Source: Octopus vulgaris
Taxonomy: Eukaryota
DNA length: 64,000 nucleotides
Assembly: GCA_951406725.2 (NCBI GenBank)
Contig: OX597820.1
Coordinates: 97,588,001-97,652,000 of the forward strand
Direction: 5' to 3'
A program made the position numbers and the translations under genes. The notes under the pieces are model-generated. The model was not told the origin of the DNA. It did not search any database and saw nothing but the letters and a program-made list of their open reading frames with translations. Each line of letters starts with the position of its first letter. Positions within the stretch are counted from its first letter, which is position 1. This document shows positions 2,765-59,179 of the stretch, piece after piece.

Positions 2765-4932
2765 GGGAGTAAGAAAGGGCATGCTCCCCGTAGAAAATCC
2801 AGCTACGAAAAAACCTCATGAAAATAGCAAAGAAGAATGGGCACCACCCAGCCCAAAGATTGGGGTGGGATGCACCTGTCTACCTGAAAAAGGAAGGTGC
2901 AAACCCTTATCCTGGGTTGCGCAAGCATGACTTGCCTTATGATGGCCGACGACCTGAGGAGAAGCTTGGGGTGAGGTTGGGAAGTTGGAATGTGGGCAGT
3001 CTGTGTGGAAGGGGAACTGAGGTGTGTGAGGAATTGAGGAAGAGGAGGGTGAATGTGTGCTGTGTGCAGGAGGTTAGGTCGAGGGGCCAGGGTGCAAGAT
3101 TTGTGGGGGTCAAGGGAGGAATGTACAAGTTGTGGTGGTCGGGAAATAACAGGGAGACTGGAGGTGTGGGAATTTTGGTGAAGGAAGAAATCTGTGAGAA
3201 GGTGGTGGAGATCAGGAGAAAGAGTGACAGAGTGATGACAGTAGTGTTAGCATTTGAGGAAGAAGTGGTGAGGGTGATTTGAGGGTATGGTCCGCAAAGT
3301 GGAAGAGGGATCGCTGAGAAAGAGCAGGTCTTTGATGAAATGGCGAATGAGTGGGACTTACAAAAGGTAGATGATCTGGTTTTGGGCATGGGTGATTTTA
3401 ATAGTCATGTTGGGAAATGGATCCAGGGCTTTGAGGGTGTGCATGAGAGGAAATGGAATTGGGGAGAGAAATTTGGAAACAAGGATGCTGTTAGAGTTTT
3501 GTGATGAGAAAGAGTTGTGTGTGGCGAATACGTGGTATAGGAAAACGGACAAAAGGAAGGTGACTTTCAGCGCAGGAAGGAATGAGACAGAGGTTAATTT
3601 CGTGTTAATTGGCAGGAAAAACAGAGAATATCTGAGATATGTGAAGACAATACAAAGGGAGTTGCAGCACAGGTTGGTGGTTGCTGACTTGAATAAGAGG
3701 AAAGTTTTTAAAATGTGTGAGAAGAAAGGTGTGGAAACTGAAGGAAGAAGAAACAAGAGCAAGGTTTGAGGAGAGAGTTGGGGAGTTGGTAAGCATTGAT
3801 GCACCGGATTTGTGGAAGTCTTTTAAAGAATGGGTGCTAAAGGCATGTAGCGAAGTATGTGGAAGGACGAAGGGTAAGAGCGATCGAGGAAATATGTGGT
3901 GGTAGAACGAGGAGGTGAGGGATGCGATAGCGAGGAAGAAGGAGGCGCACAAAGGTTTATGTAATAATATGACTGAGCAAATGAAAGCCAGGTATAATAA
4001 CACGAAGAATCGTGTAAAGAGGGTGGCTGCGAGATCTATGAATATGGAGGCTGAGGAGAGGTTGAGCGGGCTGGATGAGAACTCGGATAGAGCGTTTAGG
4101 TTTATTAAATCAAAGAAAATTGATTGAAGAGATGTTGAGGGAGGAAGATACACGGTGGGGAGTGATGGAAGGTTGAATTTTAGTGAGAAGGACAATGGAA
4201 GGCTTTGGAAGGAGCATATGGAGGGAATTATGAATAATGGTGAAGGGGACAGTGGAGAGGGTTAGTCGGGAAGAAGTAGAGGCAATGAAGGAAATGAAAA
4301 CAGGAAAGGCAGCTGGTCCATCAGAAGTAAGTGTGGAAATGATAACTGCAAGTGGAGAGATAGAGATTGTTGTGATGATAGAGCTCTACCAGGGCGAGCT
4401 GGATGGAAGCTGGATGCCAGATGACTGGGCACTAAGTGTGGTGGTACCGATCTTCAAAGGGAAAGGGGATGCGATGAGTTGTGGGGCGTATAGAGGAGGG
4501 AAGTTATTGGAGCATGCAATGAAGATTGTGGATAGGGTACAGGAGAGGTGAATTCGGAAAGGGGTGGATATGGATGAGATGCAATTTGGTTTTATGCCAG
4601 GAAGTGGGGAAGGAACAATAGATGCAGTGTTCATTGTAAGGAGATTGTAGAAGGAATGCCGAGATAATGGGAAGGAGTTGTATATGTGCTTCGTTGATCT
4701 GGAGAAAACATTTGATAAGGTTCCAAGGAAGGTGATTGAGTGGGCACTGAGGAAGAGAGGTACTAGAGGTAATAGTGAGAGCAGTGATTAGTTTGTATGA
4801 GGGGGTAAAGACAAGAGTGAGAATTGGATCAGAGCTGTCGGAGGATTTTGCGGTGGAAGTTGGTGTGCATCAGGGATCTGTGTTGTCACCATTGTTGTTT
4901 GTAATAATGGTTAATATGACGGAGAGTACAAG
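2765..4932 (+). mobile_element. RTE-clade LINE pseudogene: AP endonuclease plus N-terminal RT, truncated before the YADD motif
   Basis: RLGSWNVGSL, CCVQEVR, GGVGILV and GDFN (APE domain); MKTGKAAGPSEV, VVVPIFKGKGD, QFGFMPG, MCFVDLEKTFD, VGVHQGSVLSPLLF (RT domain). Many stops and frameshifts. Confidence 0.92.
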
Positions 4933-5660
4933 AAAGATCAGGAAGCATCATGGTGGTGGCTCAGCAAGGGTGACCTAAAAAAGAAGAATGAAAACCTAAT
5001 CATCGCTGCTCAGGATCAGGCATTGAATACCGATTCAGTGAAAATATATATATACCACACAAGTGCAGCGAACCTCTGCAGAATGTGTGAGAAGAGGGCC
5101 GAAAGCGTGACTCACATTGATCGTGCTTGTGAAAGTCTTGCACAGAAAGCATACAAGCGCAGACACGACAAAGTTGCGCAGAACCTTCACTGGCTACTAT
5201 GCCGGAAGTATGGTCACGAGGTAACGGGTGCTTGGTGCCAACATACACCAGAAATAGTAATGGACGAAAAGGGGAAGCCAAATATCCTCTGGGACTTTGA
5301 CTTCCAAGTAGACAAGGTGTTAGAGCACTGAAGGTTGGACGTAGTAACCTTTAGGCGGGAGAAACAAGAGTGCCTAATAATCGACATGGTAGTGCCAGGA
5401 GATCAGCTTATCGATAAATATGGAGACTGAGAAATGAGATCGTAAAGATTGTCCCTGTTGTCATCGGAACATTGGGTTCGATACCACCCAACCTGAAGAA
5501 ACATCTGGAAACTTTAGAAATACCCTACAATCTAGGTGCATTGCAAGAATCGGCATTACTTGGAACAGCACGCATATTGCGTAAAGTACTGTCTGTCTGA
5601 GGTCCTTGTTGTGACTTGACAGACAGTACAAATCCCCGTTAGACACAATATCTTCAATCA
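4933..5660 (+). mobile_element. 3' fragment of an R4/Dong-like LINE (CCHC zinc knuckle plus restriction-like endonuclease)
   Basis: CRMC..ESVTHI..C, YKRRHDKVA, ILWDF..QVD..LEH, CLIIDM..P, ALLGTARILRKVL ending in TGA at 5598-5600. Confidence 0.88.
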
Positions 5661-29856: not shown

Positions 29857-29938
29857 AGGTCCCGGGTTGAGTCGGGGTTAACCACAGTAAATAAGGTACT
29901 CAATACATAGCAGAGTAAAGTAATTTATTTTATAGAAG

Positions 29939-29991
29939 GAGCTTCTACAGGACTAGAACTGTTTCATTCAGATGAAATCTTCAGGAAGCCC
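29939..29991 (-). ncRNA. Type I hammerhead ribozyme with intact core inside a fold-back element (29856-30050)
   Basis: Minus strand GGGCTTC-CTGAAGA-T-TTCA-TC-TGAA-T-GAAA-CAG-TTCTAGTC-CTG-TA-GAAGCTC: 7-bp stem I and stem III ACAG/CTGT. Confidence 0.78.
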
Positions 29992-30286
29992 TGAATTTCA
30001 TCTGAATGAAACAGTTCTAGTCCTGTAGAAGCTCCTTCTATAAAATAAATAAATATATATATATATATATATATATGTACATGTATCTATATATGTCTGT
30101 GTGCCTGAGTTTGCGGGTGTGCATGTATATGTGCGCGAGCGCGCGTGTATTAAAACTATAGAGATATATTATACACATATACATGCATATAAATACACAC
30201 CTACATATAAACAAACAGTCAGATACATAACTATGCATATATGTATATGCATGTATATATACATACATATATATATGTATATATAA

Positions 30287-56237: not shown

Positions 56238-56289
56238 TAACATCGAAAAATACCTTAGGAATGAGGATCCAGGTTCGAAATTTCCCCAA

Positions 56290-56335
56290 AACACCTGATG
56301 AAGGCTGGAGGGTATATCAGCTGAAACGTTGTGTT
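56290..56335 (+). ncRNA. Minimal type I hammerhead ribozyme motif
   Basis: AACAC-CTGATGA-A-GGCTG-(10 nt)-CAGCT-GAAA-CG-TT-GTGTT: 5-bp stem I, 5-bp stem II and palindromic AACGTT stem III. Confidence 0.8.
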
Positions 56336-56401
56336 GACAACAAAGAAGACGAGGACAAATATCCGTCAAATGTAAATAATATAAATAATGTAAATAATAT
56401 A

Positions 56402-58337: not shown

Positions 58338-58411
<74 letters not shown>

Positions 58412-58561
58412 AATTAAGGACTGAACACGAAATGTGGACAGTCAACATGCTAGATATAGACGTCAAATCGCCATTCTCCACAAAAGATTATGTTCTCAGA
58501 TCAAACTCAGCACAAAACCAAAGCAATAAACAAGTGAAAATATACGAAATAAAATAATTAC

Positions 58562-58625
58562 CCATGTACTGATCAGTTTCGGCTATTATTATCCGCAAGG
58601 ATAACTGCAGCATTCATCAGCATGG
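58562..58625 (-). ncRNA. Type I hammerhead ribozyme (left arm)
   Basis: Exact reverse complement of 58825-58888. Confidence 0.82.
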
Positions 58626-58824
58626 TCCGTTATAAATGCAATTTGCTGGACTAGATGCAAAAACGATACCGAAGTATCGCGTGCATGGAGTTCAGCCTAT
58701 TACATTCGAATGTATCTTTCAAATGCCTTTACTTTGGCGCGTTGAGACCCGAGAAAACCAGCCTGCAGCTAATAATTAGCAGCAGTCAATTTATCGGTTA
58801 GAGAACATATTTATTTATAACGGA

Positions 58825-58888
58825 CCATGCTGATGAATGCTGCAGTTATCCTTGCGGATAATAATAGCCGAAACTGATCAGTACATGG
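58825..58888 (+). ncRNA. Type I hammerhead ribozyme (right arm)
   Basis: CCATG-CTGATGA-[AT-GCT..TTATCC-TTGC-GGATAA..AGC-C]-GAAA-CTGATCAG-TA-CATGG; GUA cleavage triplet and palindromic ACTGATCAGT stem III. Confidence 0.85.
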
Positions 58889-59125
58889 GTAATTATTTTA
58901 TTTCATATATTTTCACTTGTTTATTGCTTTGGTTTTGTGCTGAGTTTGATCTGAGAACATAATCTTTTGTGGAGAATGGCGATTTGACGTCTATATCTAG
59001 CATGTTGACTGTCCACTTTTCGTGTTCAGTCCTTAATTGGTATATATAAATATTTTAATCTTCGGATTCTTTTTTAATATGCTAGACCACTGGTTTTAAT
59101 TGATAAATATCAATTTCTACCCTTA

Positions 59126-59179
<54 letters not shown>

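Follow-up and report, generated by a model that had tools for sequence, protein, structure and literature searches.

Animal non-LTR retrozymes are non-coding tandem repeats, AT-rich and strongly folded, with one type I hammerhead ribozyme per unit, for which help from Penelope-like elements (PLEs) and insertion as tandem cDNA have been proposed (PMC7229834; bioRxiv 10.64898/2026.07.22.740005). A circular template has been proposed for them as well (PMC7229834), and the view that retrozymes are non-autonomous PLE derivatives is in print (bioRxiv 10.64898/2026.07.22.740005). Insertions of EN+ PLEs, in turn, place an inverted, 5'-truncated copy head to head with its partner, carry a tail at one end only, target microsatellites and show microhomology at their 5' joints; inverted copies with a one-sided tail are thus already published (PMC3846280, PMC8557442). 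PLE hammerheads combine a long helix II and a short helix I with an additional nucleotide that sits after position 9 and before 10.1 and a palindromic helix III, and pairs on opposite strands, 100-700 bp apart, have already been reported from Schistosoma (PMC4209133). Finally, the lizard PLE PAc Poseidon, studied in vitro, cuts and extends both strands of AT-rich targets and uses two internal start sites that bound the tail; these lie 7-8 nt apart in a loop that is AC-rich and does not resemble the target, and they are used without strand preference (PMC11167929).

In the window, by which we mean the whole 64,000-nucleotide stretch of Octopus vulgaris DNA under analysis, an insertion lies between a (TA)29 target tract (58352..58409) and a (TA)12 target tract (59134..59157), neither of which is assigned a strand. 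Its left arm (58410..58637, minus strand) comprises positions 1-228 of a repeat unit described below and terminates at the short end of the family; the type I hammerhead of this arm occupies 58562..58625 on the same strand, with a predicted cut after 58567. The right arm reads from the plus strand: the portion mirrored by the left arm (58813..59040, again unit positions 1-228) contains a second type I hammerhead at 58825..58888 (plus strand), predicted to cut after 58883, and is followed by a 93-bp 'tail' (59041..59133, plus strand) that spans the interval from the short end to the long end. The apparent spacer (58638..58819) is the minus-strand continuation of the left arm, corresponding to unit positions 325-506, and at the inversion joint (58813..58819) the 5' ends of both arms have seven nucleotides of microhomology, ATTTATA, in common. 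The plus strand accordingly represents unit 1-321 and the minus strand unit 325-506 followed by 1-228, so that copying extended over 0.81 and 0.63 of a unit, neither strand has a whole unit, and the 182-bp middle of the locus is present once only.

The initial annotation had described inverted arms of ~235 bp with two mismatches, a right arm longer by ~85 bp, (TA)n on both sides, one outward-reading hammerhead with a GUA site on each strand, and a Penelope-type insertion geometry. We recover 228 bp of unique sequence in each arm (99% complementary; 241 bp when the shared TA is included); genuine mismatches number two (58905/58545 and 59017/58433), and one more falls inside the TA flank. The extension measures 93 bp, CUGAUGA...GAAA...GUA is present in both arms, and the inverted 5'-truncated copy, one-ended tail and microsatellite target agree with the geometry proposed. 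The locus contains no tandem hammerhead pair on either strand and no long reading frame (where stem II begins, an ATG gives an open frame of only 41 codons), and a tblastn search of the window with a 781-aa PLE protein gave no match, i.e. no RT/GIY-YIG ORF.

Elsewhere in the genome the 321-bp arm and the reverse-complemented 182-bp spacer alternate head to tail with a period of 505-507 bp, and the spacer therefore belongs to the element. Judged by its sequence, the window locus is an incomplete copy of a non-coding hammerhead repeat of ~506 bp, that is, of a non-LTR retrozyme whose unit is larger than the typical ~300 bp and falls within the range of 51-972 bp given by Li et al. 2026. A search of the octopus's own genome (2.8 Gb, 227 contigs; best 40 of 1800 candidates scored) returned at least 169 matches. 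Counted by exact pattern, there are at least 443 hammerhead copies in the young group and at least 752 when older copies are included, against 0 for reversed control patterns, and the multi-copy family that had been anticipated is thereby borne out. It falls into three age classes, the older waves being ~70-80% and 66-73% identical, and both older waves retain the tandem junction and the two ends of the young unit. Each unit of the head-to-tail arrays, which across the family reach up to ~5 units per arm, contains a hammerhead, and the unit as a whole is AT-rich and strongly folded (z=-6.4), as in the published retrozymes. Copies have fixed 3' ends, variable 5' ends and differing flanks and are found on many contigs, indicating dispersal by retrotransposition. 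A MITE with terminal inverted repeats was rejected as a description of the element, given its unequal arms, inner breakpoints that differ from copy to copy and the tandem arrangement of its units.

Contigs of four runs whose RNA origin is a guess cover the unit, carrying no strand, cut-site or circle information; one of them crosses the tandem junction, as genomic arrays also do. We also considered an intron beginning at a donor-like GTAAT site after stem I and set it aside, as no matching joint was seen in those contigs. A separate set of four runs has contigs that contain the family, and among the pieces listed none bridges the joint of the window locus by 31 letters on each side.

The type I hammerhead core (C3 U4 G5 A6 N7 G8 A9, G12 A13 A14, A15.1-U16.1, H17) is complete in both arms, where stem I measures 5 bp and stem III is palindromic; in the right arm (plus strand) stem I is formed by 58825-58829/58884-58888 and the core by CUGAUGA at 58830-58836 and GAAA at 58870-58873. 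The hammerheads had been called intact, which holds for the 13 core nucleotides and fails at the base of stem II. Here, following an extra A (58837), the 10.1-11.1 pair, usually G-C, is replaced by U·C (U10.1 at 58838 opposite C11.1 at 58869). Whereas G10.1-C11.1 is conserved in the published PLE hammerheads (PMC4209133), large subfamilies of the octopus element mostly have G·U or U·U at this position: among the first 100 family copies listed, 94 have G at 10.1, mostly opposite U. The hammerhead haplotype of the window has three exact copies genome-wide, and its stem II is predicted at -10.8 kcal/mol, compared with -13.5 to -15.0 kcal/mol in three G-bearing copies.

An Rfam search did not detect the hammerhead in the locus at E<=10, and over the window no hammerhead was found among the best 150 of 263 matches. 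Two observations nonetheless argue that the motif is not a product of chance: the empty reversed controls, and covariation in two of the stems, II and III. Among 12 copies picked by hand, pairing holds in 97.6% of stem cells, and two-sided (compensatory) changes affect 4 of the 21 pairs, which belong to those two stems, keeping in mind that kinship inflates such counts; in the older waves, stem I and the palindromic stem III are kept through compensatory changes. Pyrimidine mismatches at 10.1-11.1 can still permit cleavage (PMC7229834, PMC3088659), and an axolotl family whose helix II has U·U at its base retains cleavage, which is more efficient in the dimer (PMC7229834). By analogy with cleavage at U·U elsewhere, the window ribozyme is predicted to be slow, not necessarily dead. 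In its additional base following A9, its long helix II, its short helix I and its palindromic helix III, the motif would likewise fit, by comparison, the PLE-type hammerheads that act as dimers (PMC4209133).

Other hammerhead-like motifs occur in and outside the window. A lone hammerhead of another family, with an extra A after CUGAUGA and a minimal stem III, lies beside (AAT)n at 56289-56345 (plus strand), and a hammerhead-like core sits in the middle of a ~90-bp palindrome adjoining (TA)n at ~29930-30030 (minus strand), a similar motif being present in L057. At L039, positions 208 (minus) and 455 (plus), there is an inverted hammerhead pair that belongs to yet another family, in which stem II is long. 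In the oldest wave of the present family (L162-L191; ~1800 candidates), core position 4 is often C (CCGANGA) and the 10.1-11.1 pair U·U. The window further contains a ~85-bp inverted repeat around (TA)n at 2560-2765, which scores below threshold against several miRNA models, and, at 2794-5328, fragments of a LINE-type endonuclease and of zf-RVT.

Ends, arms and joints were compared across 69 distinct loci: 25 from the first 30 matches (five duplicates removed), 35 chosen by hammerhead pattern alone from the first 100 matches on C1-C4, and nine more arrays. Two outward-facing arms are present at 56 of the 69 and a single arm at 13. The unit has two end sites, a short one at ~228 and a long one at ~321, each followed by TATATAAAT. 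Focusing on the 45 two-armed loci where both ends fall on one of these sites, we find that 43 pair short with long, two pair long with long and none pairs short with short (p=6e-11); in the pattern-picked set the pairing is short with long in 25 of 25. An off-site end at one side is seen in 11 of the 56 two-armed loci. Two-armed insertions with fixed PLE-type ends are a difference from the published animal retrozymes; the word 'inverted' is absent from PMC7229834.

The two arms of an insertion resemble each other more than they resemble other loci: arms differ by 0.69% within insertions versus 3.37% between loci (0.53% and 1.6%, respectively, in the main subfamily). At least one unit is contained in 64 of 125 arms and at least two in 19. 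Forty-one variants are fixed across all repeats of their locus; four are private to a locus, and three of these are on both arms. One locus, L004, has different hammerhead haplotypes on its two arms. Near the cut site we count 2 of 110 5' ends against an expected 1.5, and hence no clustering. At the joints, an overlap of at least 2 nt is found in 35 of 55 cases, compared with 29.5% in a matched simulation passed through the same BLAST (p=2e-7); an exact-match measure of microhomology is confounded by private substitutions. Classical L1 twin priming was rejected, because the arms overlap in sequence rather than abut. Two loci on different contigs, L005 and L021, have the same inversion joint (unit 282 to 3), owing either to recurrent microhomology or to the copying of a two-armed structure. 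A recurrent breakpoint in L107-L111, tried as a trace of an autonomous parent, turned out to be a segmental duplication, in which an old two-armed insertion is carried along with an apparent intron and apparent small exon.

What might produce these structures? We consider it highly probable that, taken as a whole, the explanation is a daughter insertion into (TA)n made by the RT and GIY-YIG endonuclease of a PLE acting in trans. The unit, its arrays, the two fixed ends and their pairing, the haplotype common to both arms, the microhomology joints and the TA targets are observed. In the mechanism that we propose to connect them, an array would be transcribed and its hammerheads, probably acting as dimers by way of their palindromic stem III, would cut it into unit-length RNA, which might circularise. 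The helper enzyme would nick both strands of (TA)n, and from each nick a cDNA would be started, in one case at the short site and in the other at the long site 93 nt further on, both of them UAUAUA stretches. Both cDNAs would copy the same RNA unit, over anything from a fraction of it to ~5 units, and their 3' ends would anneal over a few bases and be filled in, leaving outward-facing arms with a tail on one side only. This is consistent with PAc Poseidon, which in vitro extends both strands from two tail-bounding sites (PMC11167929), and with the short-long pairing of an intact PLE family in the same genome (see below). Imagine now that the template were one hammerhead-made RNA circle, copied from two fixed sites for up to five turns and the cDNAs joined head to head. 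A circular template would explain multimer arms of a single haplotype, and we entertain this step tentatively, somewhat short of an even chance.

Certain features sit less comfortably with the mechanism. The tail, at 93 bp, exceeds the 30-40 bp published for EN+ PLEs, and the start sites of the unit resemble the target, whereas the published PLE priming site is non-homologous to it; compared with PAc Poseidon, the octopus sites are UA-rich, 93 nt apart and used once each per insertion. Against the mechanism also count the lack of a matching pLTR in the PLE families sampled (see below), the two haplotypes of L004 and the 11 loci with an off-site end. An apparent common template could, moreover, result from gene conversion between the arms. 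We also asked whether the short and the long start site pair with each other when the RNA folds; circular folds gave no support. Set beside EN+ PLEs (PMC3846280, PMC8557442), the octopus unit has no RT or GIY-YIG ORF and may form multimer arms, and the rule of one tail per insertion is counted here (43/45).

For the cleavage and copying steps, and for these only, there is a rival that we rate a serious contender, if rather less than evenly probable: the template might be a multimer transcript, linear and left uncleaved, of an array that is young and homogeneous, with the hammerhead irrelevant to mobility. PLE insertion proceeds in vitro without hammerhead cleavage (PMC11167929), and subfamilies whose 10.1-11.1 pair is U·U or U·C have been widely amplified, both as this model would have it. 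The variants segregating within arrays speak on both sides. Of 76 such variants 25 recur in another locus, as would be expected from a linear multimer template or from recurrent mutation; at the same time 69 are confined to one repeat, which a linear template does not readily account for. Nor does it readily account for arrays of the type seen at L086, where ~7 repeats show 0 differences across both arms, or for a covariation that preserves the ribozyme fold across subfamilies.

A different view of the locus, close to that of the initial annotation, would make it a truncated pLTR plus an inverted pLTR of an autonomous PLE, among the youngest active copies. The geometry does agree with published PLE insertions (PMC8557442, PMC3846280), and frog retrozyme units are related to pLTRs (bioRxiv 10.64898/2026.07.22.740005). 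As regards age, however, the window locus, proposed as the best candidate for a recently active member, ranks 27th of 45 loci in internal divergence (2 differences in 225 sites; at least 200 comparable sites per locus). Twenty-six loci are less diverged, five of them with no difference at all, one of these over 9543 pairwise site comparisons, and divergence between arms averages 2.2% in the older subfamily to which the window copy belongs versus 0.5% in the main one. As to the pLTR of a full-length PLE, the sequence is instead a self-contained tandem unit, found head to tail without an ORF in all three age classes, and the search for an ORF-bearing parent gave none. That search, based on GIY-YIG, scored the best 150 of 6136 candidates and spanned few PLE families, which leaves the autonomous view some room; on balance, we think it unlikely.

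The genome does contain PLEs that could have been such a parent or might serve as helper. At least two young PLE families have long open frames, and both end in (TA)n. The first, with a 781-aa frame for RT and GIY-YIG, a zinc-finger-like motif and a 40-nt tail, is intact, with many whole-frame copies, and is labelled Neptune-like following PMC8557442; one full-length member (L061:1930-7172) comprises an upstream ORF, the 781-aa RT/GIY-YIG frame, 456-bp pLTRs and a 3' UTR with short repeats. Among 62 loci of this family examined, all five two-armed loci with both ends seen pair short with long. The second family is young and very large, with 19,329 candidates whose open frames reach up to 1214 aa. 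A 5'-truncated copy of it lies 1.3 kb to the right of the window (L192:1350-3770) and has a minimal hammerhead close to its (TA)n end. A profile of the unit matched no pLTR when compared with 32 GIY-YIG loci, with 30 loci that represent pLTRs of the 781-aa family and with 33 loci that belong to or adjoin the second family. The two profile matches found near PLE loci are both separate old unit copies beyond the TA tract, and in none of the six cases inspected (L024, L063, L155, L182, L183, L196) is a PLE ORF joined to a unit, TA tracts intervening in all six, which speaks against an autonomous parent. Unit copies and autonomous PLEs are repeatedly found in one and the same (TA)n tract (L024, L155, L182, L183, L196), so that insertions appear to pile up in tracts left by earlier insertions.

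Could the inverted arm instead derive from a single cDNA that primed itself or folded back at a palindrome, or from a later inverted duplication at the DNA level? Such self-priming has been proposed at the junction palindromes of rotifer PLEs (PMC3846280) and would account directly for the haplotype shared by the arms. It predicts joints at which both arms break at the same position, which is the case in 5 of 55; the remaining 50 connect different unit positions, and in the window the 182-bp middle is single-copy. Copying one arm cannot add a tail that the other arm lacks, yet 43 of 45 insertions pair short with long, and either arm may be the longer (the long-ended arm in 29 of these 43, the short-ended arm in 14). 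We therefore regard an origin by self-priming or duplication as quite improbable. Least probable of all, to the point where we give it very little credence, is a hairpin that the host has retained for regulation, be it as a substrate of ADAR, a source of siRNA or a ribozyme switch, since, despite a 228-bp duplex predicted on either strand and the small RNAs that rotifer PLE copies yield, two-armed structure is the default by-product of the family (56/69 loci) and no host exon was recognised in the window, where eight long frames were scanned and the two that matched Pfam are both LINE-type.

Returning to a daughter insertion made by a PLE in trans, we most likely see in the window a dead end. 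Having neither a whole unit nor tandem hammerheads on either strand, the window copy cannot release unit-length RNA, and its stem II is weakened. In a read-through transcript the antisense arm would be made first, and the model predicts that the ribozyme would then be caught in the 228-bp duplex; with a computed fold-back energy of -464 kcal/mol, the long sequestering hairpin foreseen in the initial annotation is likewise predicted.

The window locus is ordinary, given that opposite-strand hammerhead pairs and one-tailed, inverted insertions of PLEs are already published; the family is more informative. In the literature, most subscription papers and supplements aside, we found no account of the family and no counted end-pairing rule for retrozyme arrays, some of which may already appear in figures such as those on PLE structure and Supplementary Figure S9 of PMC7229834. 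Interest in the family stems from a task that PMC8557442 still sets for PLE research, namely to explain how tandem and inverted pLTRs, tails and the bias towards microsatellites came about, and from the helper and template of animal retrozymes, which are so far only proposed. A short, young, high-copy non-coding unit beside intact PLEs with the same target offers countable predictions, for which the near-strict end-pairing rule and the single-haplotype arms provide the basis, and a small substrate for work in vitro. If the tentative model of one circular template is true, a single reaction would account for the inverted pLTRs and one-sided tails of PLEs and for the arrays of retrozymes.
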